Made by a program: the position numbers and the translations under genes. A DNA stretch of 64,000 bases from Planctomycetota bacterium (GTDB lineage Bacteria; Planctomycetota; PLA2; JAEUHO01), in NCBI GenBank assembly GCA_965223505.1, contig CBDCWP010000041.1, forward strand, positions 1 through 64,000. The letters are read 5' to 3'. Positions 1,190-48,142 of this stretch are shown one piece after another. The notes under the pieces were generated by a model that worked only from the letters and a program-made list of their open reading frames with translations, had not been told where the DNA came from and did not search any database. The stretch's first letter is position 1, and each line of letters begins with the position of its first letter.

Positions 1190-2419
1190 TCACACGGCGT
1201 CGCTCGTCGCGCTCTCGTCGAGCACCTCGTGGGCCACCGGCAGCTCGGGCAGCTCCTTCACCTTCTGGCGCCGTCGGCGACGGGTCTTCGCCGGAATCAG
1301 CTCACGCATCAGCTCCAACTTGCCGAAGCACAGCAACCGATCGCCCGCCTCCAACACGCGCTCCGCCCTGGGATTCGGAATGACCTTCGAATCACGATGC
1401 AACGTCAGCACGTTGATGTCCTTCTCACGGAAGTCCGACTCCGCGATCGAACGCCCGACGTACTTCGACCCGTCGGGAACGTGAATCTCGGTCACCCCGT
1501 AGCCGCGGCTGACGGTCAGCCGCTGGCGCAGGTCGATCTCCGCGAAGTCCACCTGCGCCGCGATGTAGTCCATGATGGATCCCGCGATGTCGAGCTGAGT
1601 GCAACGCTCGATGCCCTCGAGGCCGGGTGACGAGTTGACCTCCATGATCTGCGGACCGTCCTGACTCTCGAGCATGTCGACACCGGCGACACGCAAGCCC
1701 ATGATCTGCGCCGCGCGGACCGCCGTCTCCTTGTAGTCCTCGCCCAGCTCCACCTGCTCGGTGAGCCCGCCACGGTGGACATTGCTTCGGAACTCCTGTC
1801 CCTGCGCAACGCGCCGCATCGCCGCAACGACCTGATCCCCCACGACGAACGCGCGGATGTCACGCCCCCGGCTCTCCGCCACGAACTTCTGGATCAACAC
1901 GTTCTGCTTCTGGCTTTGGAGCAGTTCGATGATCGACTCGGCTGATTCGACGGTGTCGGCGAGCAAGACGCCGATCCCCTGCGTGCCCTCCAGCAGCTTG
2001 ATGACGACGGGCGCGCCGCCCACCCGCTGAATCGCCGGCAACACGTCTTTCTTGTCGCGAACGAAGGTCGTCTGCGGGATGCCGATGTGATGTCGGCTGA
2101 GGATCTGCAAGCTGCGCAGCTTGTCGCGAGAGTTGGAGATGCCGGCCGACGAGTTCGCGCAGAACACGTCCATCTGCTCGAATTGGCGCACGACGGCCGT
2201 GCCGAAGTACGTGATCGACGAGCCGATTCGCGGGAGCACGGCGTCGTAGTCGGAGAGCTGCTTCTGACGAAAGTACAGGTCCGGCTCGCCCCGTCGAAGG
2301 TCGATCGCGAACTTCAGCGTGTCGAGCACCTTGACGGTGTGGCCTCGCTGCGCCGCGGCTTCGCGCAGACGCCGCGTGCTGTAGCACTGCGGGCTGCAGG
2401 AGAGGATGGCAAGCTTCAC
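1190..2419 (-). CDS. rimK: RimK-family alpha-L-glutamate ligase (ATP-grasp) with C-terminal TrkA-C/RCK_C domain
   Basis: Motifs KLAILS..YSTRRL, RDKLRSLQIL, VIKLLEGTQGIGV, EFRSNVHRGG, MEVNSSPGLEGIE; C-terminal INVLTLHRDSKVIPNP..LEAGDRLL; GTG start with an AAGGAG RBS. Confidence 0.92.
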   Translation of the reverse strand: MKLAILSCSPQCYSTRRLREAAAQRGHTVKVLDTLKFAIDLRRGEPDLYFRQKQLSDYDAVLPRIGSSITYFGTAVVRQFEQMDVFCANSSAGISNSRDKLRSLQILSRHHIGIPQTTFVRDKKDVLPAIQRVGGAPVVIKLLEGTQGIGVLLADTVESAESIIELLQSQKQNVLIQKFVAESRGRDIRAFVVGDQVVAAMRRVAQGQEFRSNVHRGGLTEQVELGEDYKETAVRAAQIMGLRVAGVDMLESQDGPQIMEVNSSPGLEGIERCTQLDIAGSIMDYIAAQVDFAEIDLRQRLTVSRGYGVTEIHVPDGSKYVGRSIAESDFREKDINVLTLHRDSKVIPNPRAERVLEAGDRLLCFGKLELMRELIPAKTRRRRRQKVKELPELPVAHEVLDESATSDAV

Positions 2420-2535
2420 ACGGTCTCCTTCTCGAGGCGGGTCCGACCGCCGGGCTGAGTGTAGTGCCCGGCCGCGCGCCGCGTACAGAGGGGCCCGACC
2501 CTGGTCCGACCCCCCTCGCACAATGCGGGCCGATC

Positions 2536-3510
2536 ATGAACGACGACGACGGATTGGTGTTCGCGTGCTTGCTCGACGGGCAAGGGGGCGGCCGTTTCGG
2601 CGGGTGGGACCTCGTGCGCGAGGCGGCCCCCGGCGACGGGGTCCTCTGGGTGCATCTCGACCTGCGCGTCGAGCGCGCTCGCCGTTGGATCGAACAGGAG
2701 AGCGGCCTCGACGAGATCGCGCGGACCGCCCTGCTCGCACAGGCGTCGCGCCCGCGAAGCGTCGCGCGCGGCGACGCGTTGCTGGTGAACCTACGCGGCG
2801 TGAATCTCAATCCCGGCTCGGAGCCCGACGACATGATCGCGGTGCGGGTGGAGTTGGAGGGCCGCCGCGTGATCACGACACGGCGGCGGCGCCTCAAGGC
2901 GCTCCAGGACGTCAGGCGGGCGCTCGAGGGCGGCAACGGCCCGGTCGACACCGGGAGCTTTCTCGTCGACCTGATCGACCGACTCCTGCGGCGCATGGCG
3001 GTTGCGTTCGAGGCGCTCGACGACCGCATCGACGACGTGCAGGCACGGATCCTCACCGGCGCAGGTTCCGCCCTGCGCTCGGAGATCGCGGAGATCCGCA
3101 ACCAGGTGATCTCCATGCGGCGCTACCTCGCGCCGCAGCGGGACGCAGTCGCGCGCCTTCAGTCCGAGAAGGTGCCCTGGCTCACGGCCGTGCACCGCGA
3201 GGAGCTGCGCGATCTGGCCGACCGTACGACGCGACGGGTGGAGGACCTCGAGGCGGCGCGCGACCGGGCCACGGTCGCGCACGAGGAGCTGACAGGCCGC
3301 ATGGCCGAACAGATGAACCGGACCATGTACATCCTGGCGCTCGTCGCGGCGATCTTCCTCCCGCTCGGGCTCATCACGGGTCTGCTCGGCATCAACGTGG
3401 GCGGCATGCCCGGCGCCGAGAACCGCGCCGCGTTCTGGATCGTCTGCGGCCTGCTGGTTGCGCTTGCCGCGACCCAATGGTGGTGGTTCAAGAAGCGCCG
3501 ATTGCTCTGA
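2536..3510 (+). CDS. zntB: CorA-family zinc transporter ZntB
   Basis: LWVHLD, RPR, LRGVNLNPG..PDDM, and C-terminal transmembrane helices with the GINVGGMPG motif. Confidence 0.88.
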   Translation: MNDDDGLVFACLLDGQGGGRFGGWDLVREAAPGDGVLWVHLDLRVERARRWIEQESGLDEIARTALLAQASRPRSVARGDALLVNLRGVNLNPGSEPDDMIAVRVELEGRRVITTRRRRLKALQDVRRALEGGNGPVDTGSFLVDLIDRLLRRMAVAFEALDDRIDDVQARILTGAGSALRSEIAEIRNQVISMRRYLAPQRDAVARLQSEKVPWLTAVHREELRDLADRTTRRVEDLEAARDRATVAHEELTGRMAEQMNRTMYILALVAAIFLPLGLITGLLGINVGGMPGAENRAAFWIVCGLLVALAATQWWWFKKRRLL

Positions 3511-3522
3511 CCCACCGGCGGG

Positions 3523-4272
3523 CTACTTGCCCGCGGGAGACCTCCTTTTCTCCTCGCGGGCGTGAAGCCACTTGCGCCACGCCGCCGGCGTCTTGCCGGC
3601 ATCTTCGCCGGCAATCGCGGCGAGCGCTTCGTGCAGCGCCGCGCGCTCGGTCGTGGAGATCACGCTTCGCGTGGAGAGCACCTTGACGTCCTGAACGGCT
3701 CCAGCCTGGAGCGTGCCGATGATGGGATCGGCAATGAACGCCGTTCAGGCCACCTCGACGTCGAAGTCCTGCAGATAGCTTCGTTGCGTGATCTGCGCGA
3801 AGTAGCTGCGCGGCGCGTTTCCGCTCGAGCGCTCCCACCGCTTGACGAGGTACGGCAGCGCCCGTTCGTCCTTGGTTCTCCCGAGCGCCTTCGCCGCGCG
3901 CACACGGGTCGCGACGCTGCGGCTCTTCAGGGCCTCGACGAGGCGGTCGAACGCATCGCGCTTCACCGGCCTTGCGGGCGAGCGTTTCGGCTTCTCGGCG
4001 CCCCCCACGACGATCGCCAGCTGCTTGCGCGCCGCCTCCTTCGTGAGCCAGGCGTCGTCCACTCTGACGTAGCCCAGCGCCCGGCGCGCAGCGGCGTGAT
4101 CCGCGTCCTCGGCGAGCACCCGTTGGTAGAGCTTGCGGGCGTCCGCGGCTCGTCCGTCGTGCTCGCAGCGAAGCGCTTCGGCATAGAGTGCGCGGGTATC
4201 TACTTCGTCGTCGCCCGCGACTGCGGTCGCAACGAGCGTCGTCACGACGAGCGCGGTGATGATGTTCCGCAT
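3523..4272 (-). CDS. secreted HEAT-repeat protein with in-frame TGA (3745-3747, codon 176 of 249 aa); candidate selenoprotein or readthrough product
   Basis: ATG 4272 with GGGAGG RBS and a signal peptide; HEAT repeat (VRAAKALGRTKDERALPYLV); SYLQDFDVEVA-TGA-TAFIADPIIGTLQAGAVQDVKV...ALAAIAGEDAGKTPAAWRKWL...GK-TAG(3523-3525). Confidence 0.7.
3690..3749 (-). promoter_or_regulatory. candidate recoding/SECIS-like structured RNA around the in-frame UGA
   Basis: Hairpin TGCCGAT/ATCGGCA begins 11 nt after the TGA; second hairpin GCTCCA-GGC-TGGAGC; a 10-bp outer helix CCTGAACGGC/GCCGTTCAGG includes the UGA. Confidence 0.55.
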
Positions 4273-4373
4273 GTGAACCTCCCTGGTACACGATGCGGGA
4301 CGCGCCCATCCCTGGAAACGCACGCGGGCGGATCTTGCAGACGCAAATCGCGGCGGACAGCGCGGAGCGGCTC

Positions 4374-4604
4374 CTATGCGCCCATGTGGAGCGCGACGAG
4401 CGCTTCGAACTCCTCCTGGCACTCGCCGCAGATCTCCAAGTGCTGCCGAACGATTCTAAGATCCACCGCGGTCTCACCCCCGATGTCGACATACTCGAGA
4501 TACGCGGATACGCGCGCGAGGAACTCGTCGCAGTCGATCTCCGAGGGTTCGGTCGCCGCGACGACGCGTAGGAGCTCCTGGAGCAGGGAGAGGTCCACCT
4601 TCAT
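4374..4604 (-). CDS. small anti-sigma factor (zf-HC2-like)
   Basis: EIDCDEF...QHLEICGECQEEFEAL (HxxxCxxC); ATGA overlap with the sigma factor stop. Confidence 0.8.
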   Translation of the reverse strand: MKVDLSLLQELLRVVAATEPSEIDCDEFLARVSAYLEYVDIGGETAVDLRIVRQHLEICGECQEEFEALVALHMGA

Positions 4605-5224
4605 GATCGGTTCGACGCTCCTGCCAGCTCGGTTCTTACCTCCCGGTCGCTGAACCCGGCCTCGTTCAGCGCTCGTTTGAGCTTCTTGCGAGCATCGTGA
4701 TGAAGCTTGTAGAGGGCGTTTGGGTTGGTTCCAAGGCGCTGAGCGAGAACACGCGAGGGCACCCCCGCCAGCTCGCCCAGGACCGCACACCGCTGCCGAT
4801 CCGTAAGCACCTCCTCGATGGCGGCATGCAGCGTCGCGAGCAAGGATCTGCGCTCGGCCGCGCGACCGGGATCGACCGGGTTCTCTTTCAGCGGTTCGAC
4901 GCCCGGCAGCTCGAGCACTCCGACAGGTCGAAGGTCGTGCCGGCGACGTCTCAGCGCGCTGAGCGCGACGCGAACGGCCACCGCGGTTGCCCAGGTCGTG
5001 AAGCGGCTGTCGCCGCGGAACGTGTCGAGCCCTTTCAGTACACGCATCACGGCGTCCTGCGTGAAATCGTCGAGATCCGAGTCGCACACTTCCGCACGGC
5101 CGCGAAGTACGCGTGCCAGCACCCTGCGTAGGTAGGCGCACAGCTCGTCGGCGCATGCGTCGTCGTTCTTCCGAAGCTCTTCGAGCCACTGCGCGTTCGT
5201 TCTGTGCTGGAGTACGGTGGGCAC
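4601..5224 (-). CDS. ECF-family RNA polymerase sigma factor
   Basis: Region 2 DDFTQDAVMRV..LDTFRGDSRFTTWA; region 4 LTDRQR..LGTNPNALYKLHHDARKKL; GTG start inferred. Confidence 0.88.
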   Translation of the reverse strand: MPTVLQHRTNAQWLEELRKNDDACADELCAYLRRVLARVLRGRAEVCDSDLDDFTQDAVMRVLKGLDTFRGDSRFTTWATAVAVRVALSALRRRRHDLRPVGVLELPGVEPLKENPVDPGRAAERRSLLATLHAAIEEVLTDRQRCAVLGELAGVPSRVLAQRLGTNPNALYKLHHDARKKLKRALNEAGFSDREVRTELAGASNRS

Positions 5225-5377
5225 GTCTCTTCCTGTGCCTCCCGCAACCACGACGGGGAAGTGCGGACGGGGTTTCCGCTTTTCCGGAAAGCGCGGGTAA
5301 GGATCCGGGCGCTGCGGCGACCAACGCATGAGTGCCGAGTGGCACGAACCCCACAACCCATTCAGGAGTGACCCATC

Positions 5378-15064: not shown

Positions 15065-16471
15065 ATGCGCCAAACGGCCGTCGTCCTCCTCCTGCTCGTC
15101 TTCGCCGGCACCCTGAGCGCCGACGAGGGCCCGGGCGGGAAGAAGAAACCCAAGAAGCCGCCCCTGCCCGGGATCCACTGGGAGCCCGACTTCGAGGCCG
15201 GTATGCGCCGCGCGGCCCTGGAGGGCCGTCCGATGCTCTTCTGCATCAACGCGCTCGAGAACCAGGTCCCCCAGCTCGTCACGCAGTCCTATCGGTCGGC
15301 GGCCTGGGGGACGGCCAGTCGCGGCTACGTGTGCTTCGCATGCAACCCGAACGACCACACCGGCCCCGACGGGCTCTCCACGCGCTTCCTGGGCGTACCG
15401 TCGGCGTCCTACAACGCGGCGCTCGACTACGTGCTGAAGCACTTCGGCCCCGATCTCATCAGTCCGTCGCACATCATCCTGGAGCCGGACGGCGAGCTCG
15501 CCTACCGCAAGGACTTCTACACCGGGGTGGTCGGGCCGGCGCTGCTCGAGCGCAAGCTGACGAGCATCGCTCCCGGCGTTGCGTACAGCCGCGCCGCGAT
15601 CGATCGCGAGGAGCGGATCGAGCGCGTCGTCGCCTCGGAGGCGCCCGGCGGCGAAGCCCGTGCGTGGCTGGCGACCGGCGACGGGTACGCGATGCCGGGC
15701 ATCCTGAACGCGCTCGACGAGCTGTACGACGTTTCGAAGCGCGTCGCGCTCATTCGGGCGTGTGCCGCAGCGCCTTCGCCGCAGGTCGCCGCGATGGCGT
15801 ACGCCGCGGAGGAGCGCCTCATGTTCCCGGACGACGAGCCGGAGGAGACGCTCGCCTGGGTGCACGTGCTGCTGGAGGTCGATCGGGAGCTGGGAGCATG
15901 GGCGGCCGCGACCGCGATCGCCCGGGCGCCCGAGCGCGAGCAGCGTGAAGCGCTGATGAAGCTGTGGTCCGGCGGCGACGGTGACGAGAAGGCCGCGCTG
16001 ATCGAAGCGCTGCTGCTCGCGGACGATCCTGCGGGCAAGCGCGCCGAGATCCCGAACGCGAGCGCGGCGATGCGTCTGCGGATCGCGCGGGCGCGCAAGA
16101 AGGCGGGTGTCGCGGAGACGATGTGGCCGCCGCTGCGCAAGGCGCTGGACGACGGCAGCTTCGGGCCGCTCCGCGGGGCGTTGCTCGAGGCGGAACCGTC
16201 CGACGTGCGCGCGAACGAGATGGCCGTCGGCAACCTGCTCGACCACCCGCTCGCCGAGCGCATCCGGATCGCTGCCGCGCTGGCGTTGTTGGGCGCCGAG
16301 TGTCGCAAGCACGCCGATCGCGTCGTCGCGATCCTGCTGCAGACGCTCTTCGATCCGATCGAGGGACCGGAGACGCGCCGCGCGGCGATCGCGCACCTCG
16401 GAGAGGATCCGGGTCTCGCGCTGGAGGAATGGGAAGCCGCGATCCGAAGCAAGATGGGGGCCGAGAAATGA
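15065..16471 (+). CDS. secreted hypothetical protein with degenerate thioredoxin-like N-terminal domain and helical repeats
   Basis: Signal peptide; IHWEPDFEAGMRRAALEGRPML, PSHIILEPDGE; no CxxC motif. Confidence 0.7.
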   Translation: MRQTAVVLLLLVFAGTLSADEGPGGKKKPKKPPLPGIHWEPDFEAGMRRAALEGRPMLFCINALENQVPQLVTQSYRSAAWGTASRGYVCFACNPNDHTGPDGLSTRFLGVPSASYNAALDYVLKHFGPDLISPSHIILEPDGELAYRKDFYTGVVGPALLERKLTSIAPGVAYSRAAIDREERIERVVASEAPGGEARAWLATGDGYAMPGILNALDELYDVSKRVALIRACAAAPSPQVAAMAYAAEERLMFPDDEPEETLAWVHVLLEVDRELGAWAAATAIARAPEREQREALMKLWSGGDGDEKAALIEALLLADDPAGKRAEIPNASAAMRLRIARARKKAGVAETMWPPLRKALDDGSFGPLRGALLEAEPSDVRANEMAVGNLLDHPLAERIRIAAALALLGAECRKHADRVVAILLQTLFDPIEGPETRRAAIAHLGEDPGLALEEWEAAIRSKMGAEK

Positions 16472-31091: not shown

Positions 31092-31883
31092 ATGGCGATG
31101 TCCAGAACCCGCAGCTTCTCGCCCGTCACCCTGCTGGCCCTCCTCCTTTGCTTCGGCCTCGCCGCCCCCGCGTGGGCGGGTTCCGAGGAGGCCGCCCGCA
31201 AGAATGCGATCAAGGGCCTCGGCAAGAAGCTCAAGAAGCTCGCGAAGGATCCGCGCGTCGAGAAGAAGCAGCCCGAGGTGATGAAGGTGCTCGAGAGCCT
31301 CGAGACGCTGGGCGGCCACGAGGCCGGCCGGGCGGCGCTGTACGGCGTCCCGATCGACATCGAGCCCATCCGCGACCGCATCTTCACGTTCGTCGAGAAG
31401 GTCCACCACAAGGATCTGGTGAAGCCGTTGGTGGAGATCATCAATCCGAAGAACAAGACCTTCCGGCGCGACGCAGACGCCAAGGCGCGCACGGCGCACG
31501 CGCTGTCGGTCGTGGCCGATCCGAAGGCGATCGAGCCGTTGAGCGCACTGATTCGAACCGACGAGGACAACGAGGTGGTCGCGAGCGCCGCGGACGCGCT
31601 GGCTACCTTCGCCGGCGCGGAGCTGAAGGACCGCAAGATCGCGGTCAAGGAGCTCGTGGACGTTCTCGAGAGCACGTACAACCTCGCGCACTCGTTCAAC
31701 CCGGACCACATCAAGCTCAAGAGCCACTACCAGAAGAAGTGGCGCGCCTACGGCAAGTCGGTGCGCGCCGCCCTGCAGTCTCTCACAGGCCAGCAGCTGA
31801 CGCGGCCACAGGAGTGGCGCCGCTGGTGGAACGACTACAAGAAGGCCAAGAGTTGGAAGGACGCGAAGCCGCGCGACAAGTAG
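31092..31883 (+). CDS. secreted HEAT-repeat protein
   Basis: Signal peptide; ADPKAIEPLSALI, VVASAADALA; C-terminal ALQSLTGQQLTRPQEWRRWW. Confidence 0.8.
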   Translation: MAMSRTRSFSPVTLLALLLCFGLAAPAWAGSEEAARKNAIKGLGKKLKKLAKDPRVEKKQPEVMKVLESLETLGGHEAGRAALYGVPIDIEPIRDRIFTFVEKVHHKDLVKPLVEIINPKNKTFRRDADAKARTAHALSVVADPKAIEPLSALIRTDEDNEVVASAADALATFAGAELKDRKIAVKELVDVLESTYNLAHSFNPDHIKLKSHYQKKWRAYGKSVRAALQSLTGQQLTRPQEWRRWWNDYKKAKSWKDAKPRDK

Positions 31884-37460: not shown

Positions 37461-38345
37461 TTAGTTCGCTGCTTGGCTGCGAACGGCGCGCCAGAGCGCC
37501 AGCAGGCGGCCCGGCTCGACCTCCTGAACGCGGCCGGCGGGGTCGATGCCCGCGCCGTCGAGCAGCGCCCGCGCGCCGGCGGCATCGACATCCGGCGCGG
37601 CCGCTCGGAGCGCCGTCGTGAGCACCTTGCGCCGCCGCGTGAAGAGCGCCGTGACGAACGCGCCGAACGGGCGCTGCTCCTCGGGTGCAAGGTCGGGCGG
37701 CCGCAGCGGCGCCAGCCGCAGCAGCGCCGAATGGACCCTGGGGCGCGGCCAGAACACCGACGGTGAGAAGCGGCGCAGCACCGCGCCGGTCGCGTTGGCG
37801 CCGACGAGCACGGACGGCGCGCCGTAGTTCGTCGATCCGGCGCGGGCGAGCATCTTCTCCGCCACCTCGAGCTGGACCATGACCGTGATCTGATCGGGCG
37901 GGCGCGGCAGACCGAGCACCCCGATCAGGACCGGCGTCGCGACCGAATACGGCAGGTTGCTGACCATGAGCAGCCGGCCGTCGGCGGGCGGGTCGAAGGC
38001 GGCCGCGAACGCGGGCGCCAACTCGTGCTTGGACGCGAGCACGTCCAGCTCGTGGAACACGACGGTCGCGGGCCAGTCCCGAAGCTGCTTGGCCAGGTCC
38101 TGCAGCTTGCCGTCGACGTCGAAGGTCTGAACGCGGGCGCCGGTCTCGCAGAGCACGTTGGTCAGGATGCCCGGGCCGGTCCCGACCTCGACGACGACGT
38201 CGTCGGGGCCCACGTCGGCGTCGCGAGCGATCGCGTCCACGGCCTGCGCGTCGGTGAGAAAGCACTGCCCATGCATCTTGCGCGGACGCAGGCCGTGTCG
38301 TTCCAGCGCCGCTCGAAGCGCCGCGGTGTTGCGCGGAAAGGTCAC
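37461..38345 (-). CDS. rsmA: 16S rRNA (A1518/A1519) dimethyltransferase
   Basis: GQCFL, VEVGTGPGILT, SNLPYSVAT, MVQLEVA, FWPRPRVHS, RRK. Confidence 0.92.
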   Translation of the reverse strand: MTFPRNTAALRAALERHGLRPRKMHGQCFLTDAQAVDAIARDADVGPDDVVVEVGTGPGILTNVLCETGARVQTFDVDGKLQDLAKQLRDWPATVVFHELDVLASKHELAPAFAAAFDPPADGRLLMVSNLPYSVATPVLIGVLGLPRPPDQITVMVQLEVAEKMLARAGSTNYGAPSVLVGANATGAVLRRFSPSVFWPRPRVHSALLRLAPLRPPDLAPEEQRPFGAFVTALFTRRRKVLTTALRAAAPDVDAAGARALLDGAGIDPAGRVQEVEPGRLLALWRAVRSQAAN

Positions 38346-39463
38346 TTCCGTCCCTTGCGTTCGCGCGCGCGTCGCAGCTCCTCGCGCCATGCGCTCACGT
38401 TGCGGCCGTGCCGCGCACCGGTTCGGTTCGCGAGAAGCGCGACGGCTTCGGTCCAGATTGCGGGCTCACGCGAGTCCACCGCGATCAGCACGAGCTCGTC
38501 GCCGGCCGGGTCTTCGAGGCGAAACAGCGCGGATGCCGCCGCCCAGCGGACTTCCCGCTTTCGATCGTGACGGGCCATGCGCCGCACGCGCGGGATGGCG
38601 CTCCGCAGGCGCGCCTGTTGAACGCCGCCGACGGCGGCGACGCGCACGCGGGCCTCGGCGTCGTTGAGCAAGCCGTGCAGGTGCGCCGGATGGCCGGCGC
38701 GCGCAAAACCCTCGGCGGCGGTGACGGCGACGCGCGCATCGGAGTCGCGCACCAGCTGGTTCAGGACGGGAATGGGATCGGACGCCATGACCGCCACCGC
38801 GCGCGCAAGCGCGCTGCGCGCGAGCCAATGGCGCTTGGCCTGCGTGCGCTGGTAGACGTCGCGAATGCGCTTCAGATCGGCGCCGTGTCCGCACTTGGCC
38901 AGCGCCATGACGGCGGCGGCGCGCAGGCCCCAGCGCGGGTCGTCGGCATCCGTCGCATCGAGCGCACCCAGGGCGGCCTCGCGCGCCTTGGCGCCGCCGC
39001 TCTCCCCCAGCGCGGTGACGGCCGCGGTGCGGATCGCCGCCGGAACGCGCGGGCCCGCGTAGGGAACGAGCATCTCGATGTCCTCAGCGGCCCCGCCGAG
39101 ACGTCCCAGAGCGATGAGCAGCGCGGGCACGACGGTCGGATGGTGTTCCTTCGCGAGGCGCTTGCGCAGGGCGGGCGCGGCGGCGCGCCACTCGATCTTC
39201 ACCAACGCGTTGGCCGCGGCGCGACGGGTGACGTCGTCGGGGTGCTCGAGCGCGCGCGCGAGCGCGGCGCCCGCGACCGCCCTCGCCTTGGGGCGCTTCG
39301 AGCGACCGAGGTAGTTCGCCGCGCTCAGGCGATCGGCGCGGTCGCCGTCCGCGAGCTGCTTCGCGGCGTGACCGGCCGAGGCGAACTCCGCGCCGTTCGC
39401 GGCGGTGGCGAATGCGGCGGCGCACAGCAGGGCGGCGGCGAGCGCGAACGTGCGGACGAACAT
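38342..39463 (-). CDS. secreted HEAT-repeat protein
   Basis: Signal peptide, repeated HEAT units, C-terminal LLANRTGARHGRNVSAW. Confidence 0.78.
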   Translation of the reverse strand: MFVRTFALAAALLCAAAFATAANGAEFASAGHAAKQLADGDRADRLSAANYLGRSKRPKARAVAGAALARALEHPDDVTRRAAANALVKIEWRAAAPALRKRLAKEHHPTVVPALLIALGRLGGAAEDIEMLVPYAGPRVPAAIRTAAVTALGESGGAKAREAALGALDATDADDPRWGLRAAAVMALAKCGHGADLKRIRDVYQRTQAKRHWLARSALARAVAVMASDPIPVLNQLVRDSDARVAVTAAEGFARAGHPAHLHGLLNDAEARVRVAAVGGVQQARLRSAIPRVRRMARHDRKREVRWAAASALFRLEDPAGDELVLIAVDSREPAIWTEAVALLANRTGARHGRNVSAWREELRRARERKGRK

Positions 39464-46210: not shown

Positions 46211-48142
46211 CTATTTGACGACGCGCTTGTTGCCGACGCGGCGCGAGAACCCGGATTTGTCGAGCGCCTCGAGCAGCGGGATGACCCACTTGCGCGTGGT
46301 GTTCATCACGGTGCGCGCGTCGGCAGGCGTGAATCCGCCCTGCGCCTGCGCGATCTCGGCCAGCTTCGCCTTCTGTGCTTCGAGCCAGCCCGCGTCGAAC
46401 CAGAAGTCCTCGGCCTTGAACACGAGACGGCGTTGGTGCAGGAGACGCAGCGCGCGGTTGAGCTCGGGGCTCGACAGACGCAGCTCCGCCTCCAGAGCGT
46501 CCACGGCGGGCGGCTGCCCGCCGCCGGCGGCAAGCAGCGCCAGGATGCTGTCGCAGCGCGCCTTGTCCTCCGGGGGGAGGTCGGACGAGTGATCCTTGTG
46601 CCGGACGTTGCCGTCCGCAGTCCGCACGAACGTGCCGGCGGCGGTCAAGCGATCGAGAACGGTGTCGAGCACGACGGGCTCCGTACGGCCCGCGGCCGAC
46701 CGCACCGCTGCGAGCGAGAGGGCGTCGACGGCGGCGTCCTTCTCGTGCAGCTTGCGAACCGCGGCTTCGACGCGCCGCGCGACCTTCTCGAACGCCGCGC
46801 CGGTGATCCAGCGGCCCGAGCGCCCCACCGCGACGGCCTCGCCGGACGACACGAGCGCCTCGACGAACGCCGGCAGCGAGCGGGGCTGCAACGCGGTGGC
46901 GGCCGCGATCTCGTCGAGCGTGCAGCCGCGCTCGCCGGAGGCTGTGATGCACGACGTCACGAGCGCCTGCGGATCGTCGAGGTGCTCCGCGAGCGCCATC
47001 AACGCGTCGAGGCGGCCCTGGCGGCGCGGCGGAATGCGCCGGGTCAACAACTCGACGACGACGCCGCCCCCCCACGTCGACGACGCGTTCTCGGCGCGAA
47101 GCACCAGACGGTCACCGGGCGCCGCGACGAACGGCTTGTCCGACTCGAGCTCCACGATCGCGACGCCGCCCTTCTCGATGGGCTTGCGCGACGGCACGTG
47201 GACGCGCACGACGACCTGGTCCGACCCCAGATGCAAGCGCGCGCGATCGCCGTGTTCGATCCGCTTGCGAACGCTCTTCAGGACGCGCAACTTCGCGGCG
47301 ACACGATGGACGGGCTTCAAGACGCCGGCGGTCGCCACGACCATGCCGCGCTTGACCTTGTCGACGTGGATGTCGGTGAGCGCGAGCGCGGCGCGATGTC
47401 CCGCGCGGGCGTCTTCCGACGATCGATGGTGCACCTGGATCCCACGCACGCGGCTCGGCCACACGGCCGGAAGCACATCGACGCGGTCGCCGTCGGCGAT
47501 CTGTCCGGAGATCGGAATGCCGGTGACGATCGCGCCGCGGCCGGGCGCCAGGAACGAACGCAACACCGGCATGCGGAAGATGCGCGCGTCGTCCGCGCGC
47601 TTCACGGACTCGGGAATGGTCGCCGAGATGGCGTCGCGCAACTCCTCGACGCCGTCGCCCGTCTCGGACGAGACGTAGAGGATCGGTGCGCCTTCCATGC
47701 CGGTCGTCGCGAGCAGGTCGCGGACCTCCTCGGCGGCGATGTCGCACATCTCCCTCTCGACGAGGTCCGTCTTGGTGAGCGCGACGACCAGGCGCGTCAC
47801 CCCGAGGACGTCGAGGATCTCGACGTGCTCGCGGGTCTGCGGCATCGGACCGTCGTCCGCCGCGACGACGAGCAGGGCGAGGTCCATCGCCGTGGCGGCC
47901 GCGACCATGGTGCGCACGAGCCGCTCGTGGCCGGGAACGTCCACCAACCCGACCTCGGTGCCGTCCTGGAGGCTGAAGGTCGCGTAGCCGACGTCGATCG
48001 TCATGCCCCGCTCGCGCTCCTCGGGCAGCCGATCGGCGTTCATCCCGGCCGTGAGCCGCTTCACGAGCGCAGTCTTGCCATGGTCGATGTGCCCGGCGGT
48101 CCCGAGGATCACACGGCGTACGGCGGGGGCGGTTGAGGTCAT
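46211..48142 (-). CDS. selB: selenocysteine-specific translation elongation factor SelB
   Basis: [51 protein letters not shown], and a C-terminal winged helix [13 protein letters not shown]...RRVGNKR. Confidence 0.95.

Follow-up and report, generated by a model that had tools for sequence, protein, structure and literature searches.

A UGA codon conserved within the gene of a secreted repeat protein of Planctomycetota points to a candidate selenoprotein family without cysteine homologues

Introduction

A gene for a predicted secreted repeat protein in a Planctomycetota genome (assembly GCA_965223505.1) carries a TGA in its reading frame, and a TGA stands at the identical alignment column in 13 distinct sequences, which come from seven species-level Planctomycetota genomes and six metagenome contigs. 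Since the same TGA recurs in other genomes, it is neither an assembly error nor a nonsense mutation private to this gene. Comparison of the sequences suggests that these genes probably make up a selenoprotein family without Cys homologues, in which selenocysteine (Sec) would be placed at the tip of a hairpin resembling the gate of secretins. A description of such a family was not found in the literature searched, including passages of PMC13188914, PMC12013277, PMC13326102 and PMC2398784.

The gene was studied within a stretch of 64,000 nucleotides, here called the window, which is one contig (CBDCWP010000041.1) of a 5.15-Mb genome in 44 contigs (92% complete; G000 below). In the following, the gene and its predicted product are described, together with the evidence that the TGA and the frame behind it are conserved, the Sec machinery of the host and the RNA hairpins that follow the codon.

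Results

The gene and its predicted product

The gene is read on the minus strand from an ATG at 4272-4270 to a TAG at 3525-3523, with 73 sense codons between the TGA (3747-3745) and the TAG. The motif around the interruption is DFDVEVA-TGA-TAFIADP. Coordinates of the gene, its predicted domains, the RNA elements and other genes of the window are collected in Table 1.

Table 1. Features of the window that bear on the interrupted gene (all positions are those of the window; residues are counted with the TGA as codon 176)
Feature	Position	Strand	Remarks
Whole gene, read through the TGA	3523..4272	-	249 residues and TAG stop; predicted secreted TPR/HEAT protein with C-terminal beta-hairpin module
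Shine-Dalgarno-like GGGAGG	4278..4283	-	5 nt ahead of the ATG; read from the sequence
Predicted signal peptide, residues 1-20	4213..4272	-	MRNIITALVVTTLVATAVAG; hydrophobic N-terminus, predicted helix 2-16; putative cleavage site
Weak TPR-like region, residues 27-68	4069..4194	-	TPR families, every score under the cut-off
HEAT repeat, residues 105-150	3823..3960	-	PF13646 HEAT_2, 29.5 bits against a cut-off of 27.7 (Pfam gathering threshold passed)
Long beta-hairpin module (predicted), residues 156-196	3685..3807	-	Homologous segment in the genome's secretin domain; residue 176 in the conserved tip (168-184)
In-frame TGA, codon 176	3745..3747	-	Candidate Sec codon; paralogues have Gln, Ser, Ala or Lys
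Two C-terminal helices (predicted), residues 201-244	3541..3672	-	Cap motif ..AGEDAGKTPAAWRKWL; AlphaFold2 model and ORF comparison
Outer 10-bp helix	3690..3749	-	CCUGAACGGC/GCCGUUCAGG; 5' arm 3749-3740 contains the UGA, 3' arm 3699-3690; in the MFE fold
Hairpin 1	3714..3733	-	7-bp stem UGCCGAU/AUCGGCA, loop CCCAUC (no G); begins 11 nt past the UGA
Hairpin 2	3698..3712	-	GCUCCA-GGC-UGGAGC; G-containing loop 38 nt after the UGA
Putative zf-HC2 anti-sigma factor, upstream neighbour	4377..4640	-	PF13490, 22.5 bits against a cut-off of 22.2
ECF-type sigma factor, upstream neighbour	4604..5356	-	Sigma70_r2, E = 5.5e-12
SelB winged-helix domain match	46220..46354	-	Inside a 662-aa open frame; Sec machinery, separate from the locus

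The TPR-like region contains a motif, AARRALGY, that is common to the window protein and its paralogues. An AlphaFold2 model, built from a 34-sequence alignment with Cys in place of Sec, has a mean pLDDT of 80.5 and predicts that strands 156-167 and 185-196 form a long beta-hairpin that is followed by two helices. The tip of this hairpin (residues 168-184) is modelled with a pLDDT below 50, yet it is the most conserved part of the protein family. The C-terminal cap had been noticed in the preliminary description of this DNA as one shared with other helical-repeat proteins nearby, and a similar cap (..L.G......W..W) does occur in the frames at 31092-31883 (plus strand), 38342-39463 (minus strand) and 15065-16471 (plus strand).

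Of 41 related genomes, 39 have relatives of the protein. The window protein fits none of the named NCBIfam families. In the PDB, Foldseek found only weak TPR/HEAT-like rows and nothing at E <=0.001, and between 3500 and 4300 Rfam had no relevant match at E up to 10. In the existing annotation, the window gene is recorded only as a 175-residue N-terminal fragment (P0177), and in the annotation of G022 the gene caller starts a protein within the post-TGA part (P0047). A conserved gene neighbourhood was considered and rejected, as the flanking genes differ from locus to locus; tandem paralogues adjoin the TGA-form loci in G001, G022 and G097.

Recurrence of the TGA in other genomes

The seven genomes with the TGA form are spread over three families and two orders, the form of G097 coming from a family outside the host's order. 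Among the aligned loci, an in-frame TGA stands at exactly this column in G001, G022, G025, G030 (at two contig ends) and G034. A DNA pattern scan with one genome per species returned 33 stretches, six of which, in these same five genomes, are loci of the protein family; the remaining 27 gave no match to the protein at E up to 1e-3. A longer pattern was used for metagenome contigs, and all seven of its matches are homologues with TGA at the column, two of them identical over the compared stretch. Further, when 401 Planctomycetota genomes were scanned with TGN allowed at the column, seven matches in six genomes resulted, every one of them TGA and one of them in G097. It is this recurrence at one column in other genomes that exceeds chance. 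The preliminary description had named a TGA unique to this assembly as the outcome that would speak against recoding, and the 13 distinct sequences are the opposite of it.

The stretch occurs in contigs of three sequencing runs, all of DNA and all from a single study; no RNA run is listed with it. Two of the three come from one sample that is possibly the source of the assembly. The run contigs show no differences at the TGA; those of the third run leave out 3667-3790.

Residues found in place of the TGA

The genome's own paralogues read DFDVEVAQTSFIADPIVG and thus have Gln at the TGA column, which agrees with what the preliminary description gave for related planctomycete motifs. Counted over the loci and the host's own genome, the column holds Gln in 20 sequences, Ser in four, Ala in three and Lys in one. 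The corresponding figures from a collection of 5.8 billion proteins are 22 Gln, two Ser and one Ala; the query of that search carried Cys at position 176, so that a Cys form with words in common with it would have become a candidate. A profile search of 1.84 billion representatives yielded mostly long multi-HEAT proteins, and the six of the 150 listed matches that spanned the whole profile have Lys, Gln, Lys, Gln, Ser and Gln.

At the nucleotide level, neither TGY nor TGG was found at the column in any of the 40 genomes searched in the order, which cover f1, the family of the host genome, and f2, nor in the 401 genomes of the phylum. Close relatives with CGA, TGG or TCA had been named at the outset as a sign of a point mutation or error; among the sequences examined, no CGA, TGG, TGY or TCA replaces the TGA. 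Similarly, the alignments of the TGA forms were read for a UxxC or CxxU motif and for a conserved Cys, and contain none.

Conservation of the downstream frame

Over the 25 codons after the TGA, dN/dS ranges from 0.11 to 0.79 and is below 1 in all 12 pairs compared; the 20 codons before it give 0.13-0.88 (10 pairs with a computable value). GC by codon position keeps a coding-like pattern, with GC3 at 0.86 ahead of the TGA and 0.82 behind it. No gaps interrupt the alignment of the TGA forms, either in the motif or past it, and their residues match the paralogues' domain column by column; no conserved start codon after the TGA was seen when the alignments of the other TGA forms were inspected. 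This pattern of substitution indicates that the downstream frame is under purifying selection and that the part after the TGA is translated. Together with the recurring TGA, the selection on the frame supports the earlier placement of the true end of the gene at the TAG at 3523.

Selenocysteine machinery of the host

The genome that holds the window (G000) encodes SelA, SelB, a tRNA-Sec (found with aragorn) and a SelD-like gene, the last being an AIRS-domain gene that adjoins selA and was taken as SelD. Several of its redoxin-family genes also have one in-frame TGA, at a UxxC motif. TGA is otherwise an ordinary stop in G000, where it ends 663 of 1690 long ORFs in a crude ORF count; thus there is no genome-wide reassignment of the codon. 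Because the full Sec machinery is present, Sec is favoured as the residue that would be inserted. SelA was found in all seven genomes with the TGA form, including G097, but this barely discriminates, since SelA is nearly universal in the clade (37 of 41 relatives).

RNA structure after the UGA

The three helices that had been predicted around and behind the UGA are all present as described. Hairpin 1 of the window gene is encoded by I-A-D-P-I-I-G. Hairpin 2, which competes with the 10-bp helix for 2 bp, is kept in the TGA forms of G001 and G022 with different stem sequences. The outer helix measures 10 bp in the window, while the G001 form has 9 bp of it and the G022 form 4+2 bp; its 3' arm includes a rare GTT Val codon that is present in all three f1 TGA forms and makes the helix possible. 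This helix, which had been proposed to sequester the UGA, is part of the MFE fold of the window gene and is seen only in the host's family (f1), being strong in two of its three TGA forms and weak in the third. Five A/T-ending codons just after the UGA had also been considered unusual; with five such codons among 19 after the UGA and 33 among 230 elsewhere, the difference is not significant (p = 0.13).

Hairpin 1 shows compensatory changes: across its eight pairs in a 12-sequence alignment, 82% of cells are paired and three pairs have changed on both sides, values that only 1-2 of 500 shuffles reach, and one of the double changes, in G030, joins an Asp-to-Asn replacement to a synonymous Gly change. 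Against this, hairpin 1 is mostly a by-product of the peptide motif, and the fold energy of the window gene region lies within chance (z = -1.74; 13 of 200 shuffles fold as well). The hairpin is not specific to TGA forms either, the same eight pairs being 73-83% paired in 28 non-TGA paralogues. The family as a whole has it, since the codons for I-A-D-P-x-x-G-V are GC-rich and self-complementary.

A quantitative difference between TGA forms and paralogues was observed in the number of Watson-Crick pairs of hairpin 1, which is 6.46 of 8 in the former and 5.43 of 8 in the latter (p = 0.0018; this and all other p-values are overstated because the sequences are related), and the local hairpin energies are -11.8 and -7.9 kcal/mol, respectively. 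The MFE of the 66 nt downstream differs weakly (-25.3 vs -22.5, p = 0.06), and that of an upstream control stretch differs more (-23.2 vs -16.1, p = 0.0008), so that composition or lineage may explain part of the difference in stability. RNAalifold gave a weak consensus for all 12 sequences (-8.7 kcal/mol), because the hairpins sit in different registers by lineage. Covariation in the hairpins is partial.

Comparison with the bSECIS model

The downstream hairpins were compared with the bSECIS criteria given in the legend to Fig. 2 of PMC13188914 (a loop of 3-9 nt with G in its first two positions, a stem of 4-16 bp, a distance of 16-37 nt from the UGA and an energy <= -7.5 kcal/mol), using our own implementation of that legend. 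Ten of the 13 TGA forms pass, as do seven of 30 paralogues at the same column, 763 of 3000 random genome positions (25%) and four of the six UxxC redoxin selenoprotein candidates of G000. Counted by distinct hairpin design, the passes come to three of six.

The passing forms are mostly of the f2 design, to which eight of the ten belong: a GGU or CGGU loop lies 19-20 nt after the UGA, mostly with an unpaired A in the stem, and the GGU loop resembles the loops (GGU, GUC, GUU) of SECIS-like hairpins known in G000. The f1 design, seen in the three forms of the window's family, combines a hairpin 1 whose loop has no G with hairpin 2 and the helix over the UGA; the loops of hairpin 2 in these forms are GGC, GGUC and AGUU. 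The window gene itself fails the model, as the loop of hairpin 1 lacks G and the GGC loop of hairpin 2 lies at 38 nt, the limit being 37. The TGA forms of G022 and G097 fail as well. According to PMC13188914, a subset of accepted selenoprotein genes also fails this model. In the metagenome contig mg63, the residues differ (DPGTGT), yet a hairpin with a GUA loop is kept at the same place.

Origin of the TGA forms

The TGA column was masked for a maximum-likelihood tree of 41 family members, in which at least three groups of TGA forms can be told apart. Seven forms of the f2 type are sister to the f2 Gln forms; mg63 and the TGA form of G097 group together, beside the Gln form of G097 itself; and the three f1 forms stand apart from one another, two of them pairing with their tandem neighbours, one an Ala form (support 94/90) and the other a Lys form (100/98). 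A tree in which all TGA forms make up one clade is rejected by an AU test (p = 0.002, with a difference of 79 in log-likelihood). Transfer of a local patch shared by the TGA forms is not supported, as the identity over 54 nt is 0.76 between f1 and f2 TGA forms and 0.79 between f1 TGA forms and f1 paralogues. Since a single clade is rejected and no shared patch is seen, there are two readings: repeated origin of the UGA at this codon, or a common descent masked by concerted evolution among the paralogues.

A change from CAG to TGA takes three transitions, possibly by way of Arg, and a change from TCA (Ser) to TGA takes one; no TCA form was seen at the column among the sequences examined. Template switching at a quasi-palindrome was tried as a general origin of the TGA and rejected, most TGA forms having no 10-bp helix.

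Discussion

Proposed mechanism and alternative explanations

The claim of UGA recoding made in the preliminary description is supported as regards recoding itself; the data fit Sec and other kinds of readthrough alike. In the reading that we favour, the gene would encode a single secreted protein of 249 residues, in which UGA-176 is decoded as Sec by SelB and tRNA-Sec, recruited by the RNA hairpins that lie just downstream inside the coding sequence. Sec would take the place of Gln at the tip of the long beta-hairpin, the module that has a homologous segment in the secretin domain. A UGA arising at codon 176 would sit at SECIS distance from a stem-loop that the family already possessed, and we propose that only this codon was recoded, possibly more than once, because the family hairpin pre-exists at the right distance. 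A TPR/HEAT fragment of 175 residues would result whenever ribosomes stop at the UGA, either as a by-product or as a second isoform, so that short and long products may coexist. At the hairpin tip of an oligomer, Sec might serve for selenium cross-links or ligand binding and not for catalytic redox chemistry, which is speculation on our part.

Readthrough by a near-cognate tRNA, independent of SelB and perhaps aided by the hairpins, would give a major product of 175 residues and a minor full-length one with an ordinary residue at 176. This is rather unlikely in our judgement, even though it predicts the conserved UGA and downstream frame equally well and accommodates both the position of the window hairpins outside the SECIS model and the lack of Cys homologues and of a redox motif. 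What it leads one to expect among diverged relatives is TGG, TGY or CGA, and none of these was found at the column in the sequences examined. The occurrence of SelA in every TGA-form genome also speaks against it, although weakly in a clade where most members have SelA. To our knowledge, conserved programmed UGA readthrough is rare in cellular bacterial genes, which we count as a further point against this explanation.

Improbable, too, is a genuine, selected stop at the UGA, by which the 175-residue TPR/HEAT fragment would be the functional product and the downstream sequence would be kept for separate translation or for a role as RNA. The match of the downstream residues to the paralogues' domain without indels, at dN/dS below 1, tells against such a stop, which would moreover halve the predicted beta-hairpin. 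In favour of it, the protein collection lists the 175-aa product of the gene caller (P0177), and a GTG at 3681 could start an in-frame ORF of 52 aa; in the other forms, inspection of the part behind the TGA showed no start codon whose position is conserved. Finally, a pseudogene, a private nonsense mutation or an assembly error in G000 is hardly credible. In favour of it, the only coverage of the TGA in sequencing runs comes from contigs out of which the assembly itself may have been made, and a template-switch 'correction' of a quasi-palindrome could have created the TGA and the 10-bp helix of the window gene at once. However, 12 other distinct sequences, all from independent assemblies, carry this TGA, most of them without that helix, so that template switching fails to explain the recurrence, and the downstream frame is intact and conserved.

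Implications

Decoding of the UGA as Sec would bear on how selenoproteins are searched for. Selenoprotein discovery pipelines keep only candidates with Cys homologues at the UGA; in PMC12013277, the paper on deep-Sep, all known selenoproteins are stated to have Cys homologues by now, and the filter used there would drop proteins that lack them. A recoded UGA opposite Gln and without a redox motif would be invisible to such pipelines, and may break a working rule of the field. The pre-existing hairpin would also offer a model for the appearance of a new Sec site, in which a structure dictated by the peptide is already in place and one codon is pre-adapted for recoding. It is tempting to go further and to see here the first selenoprotein family without a cysteine counterpart, in which Sec was captured, possibly several times, by a non-enzymatic secreted protein through a SECIS-like hairpin that it already had; we put this forward as a tentative and somewhat doubtful proposal. 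If some residue other than Sec is inserted, a cellular bacterial gene with conserved, programmed readthrough of a UGA would be unusual as well.

Comparison with known systems

The window protein shares the stretch QxSYxQDFDVEVA-x-TxFIADPxxGxxQxG with the secretin domain (PF00263) of the genome's own 955-aa secretin (L092). Residues of about 270-293 presumably form the gate-hairpin region of pIV. It is with these residues of phage f1 pIV (PDB 7OFH) that the L092 secretin aligns over the shared stretch. The shared segment is only about 45 residues long, and PF00263 gives no hit to the window protein with E values as high as 1 allowed. The window protein is not a secretin; it is without the remainder of the barrel, and TPR and HEAT repeats stand where secretins have N-domains.

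The A1 protein of phage Q-beta and proteins of some RNA viruses are made by programmed UGA readthrough that is aided by downstream RNA structure. Such genes likewise have an in-frame UGA, a conserved frame, a nearby stem-loop and short and long isoforms. They differ in being viral and in the insertion of an ordinary residue, whereas here the host has a Sec system and no sense codon is seen to replace the UGA among relatives.

Glycine reductase selenoprotein A (GrdA) was formerly cited as the sole selenoprotein without Cys homologues, and such homologues are now reported (PMC12013277); it resembles the window family in that its Cys homologues long remained unknown. GrdA is a component of a redox enzyme, in contrast to the window protein, which is a predicted secreted repeat protein with no evident catalytic site.

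A further comparison is with bacterial selenoprotein genes that have an intragenic SECIS, such as fdhF of E. coli and the UxxC redoxin/TlpA-like candidates of G000. At the UGA, the window family aligns Gln, Ser, Ala or Lys and never Cys; its protein has no redox motif and neither a thioredoxin-like nor another enzyme fold; and the element of the window gene is a two-hairpin, three-way structure with the G-containing loop at 38 nt, the range of the model being 16-37. What these genes have in common with the window family is a conserved in-frame UGA, a stem-loop about 11 nt downstream within the coding sequence and the full Sec machinery, and in the f2-type forms also a small apical loop containing G or U at 19-20 nt after the UGA. 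In the intragenic SECIS of fdhF the UGA lies within the lower helix, as it does in the f1 forms.

Selenoprotein candidates in the genome

Six redoxin-family genes of the genome to which the window belongs (G000) each carry a single in-frame TGA at a UxxC motif, with hairpins after it whose small loops contain G/U. This genome appears to be rich in selenoproteins. A further, weak redoxin match is interrupted in frame by TGA twice, at a spacing of three codons (..DPG*DT*HN..), and may be a decayed copy. A match to the SelB winged-helix domain was found within a 662-aa open frame of the window, about 42 kb from the gene encoding the secreted HEAT/TPR protein with the in-frame TGA (the TGA gene).

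Features located in the window and in the rest of G000
Feature	Location	Strand
SelB winged-helix domain match	window 46220-46354	-
Redoxin-family gene, TGA at UxxC	C34:163859-164242	
Redoxin-family gene, TGA at UxxC	C10:185702-186073	
Redoxin-family gene, TGA at UxxC	C39:143042-143395	
Redoxin-family gene, TGA at UxxC	C5:23780-24145	
Redoxin-family gene, TGA at UxxC	C43:78801-79163	
Redoxin-family gene, TGA at UxxC	C44:181560-181916	
Weak redoxin match, two TGAs	C7:1492-1830	+
Secreted helical-repeat ORF with cap	window 31092-31883	+
Secreted helical-repeat ORF with cap	window 38342-39463	-
Secreted helical-repeat ORF with cap	window 15065-16471	+

Genomic context and assembly of the TGA forms

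Family members with TGA at the same alignment column as the TGA gene (TGA forms) lie beside paralogues in the Planctomycetota genomes G022 and G097. In G022 (L026, C296, about 2336-3937, minus strand), the reading frame of the TGA form stays open into the next tandem paralogue, which has a Lys codon at the column, and the gene-caller protein P0047 has its start placed within the C-terminus of the TGA form; this run-on could represent a fusion or a lost stop. In G097 (L085, C4, about 1143-1520 on the locus, minus strand), the TGA form has the motif once more, in part, at its C-terminus (..DFDVEVSKTSFIADP..), and is immediately preceded by a Gln-form paralogue.

In a third genome, G030, the contigs C270 (L024) and C266 (L025) both break off within a TGA-motif gene, with the motif present at each end. 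The two loci differ by an Asp/Asn exchange that is matched, in the hairpin just 3' of the TGA, by a synonymous change, and it looks as if the assembly broke here at strain-level variation. In a third DNA sequencing run, on a second sample from one and the same study, contigs end on either side of window positions 3667-3790, the stretch with the TGA and hairpins, a contig gap that proves nothing.

Motif and C-terminal cap in other proteins

The same motif, as DFDVEIAQTSFVADP, occurs in G000 (C5:395-574, minus strand) in a 2009-aa open frame, whose very large product has YD/RHS-like repeats followed by a terminal secretin-like domain, in which the motif lies. A C-terminal cap similar to that of the TGA gene's product (..L.G.....W..W/..) is found in three other secreted helical-repeat ORFs of the window; proteins of this kind in G000 seem commonly to end in this module.
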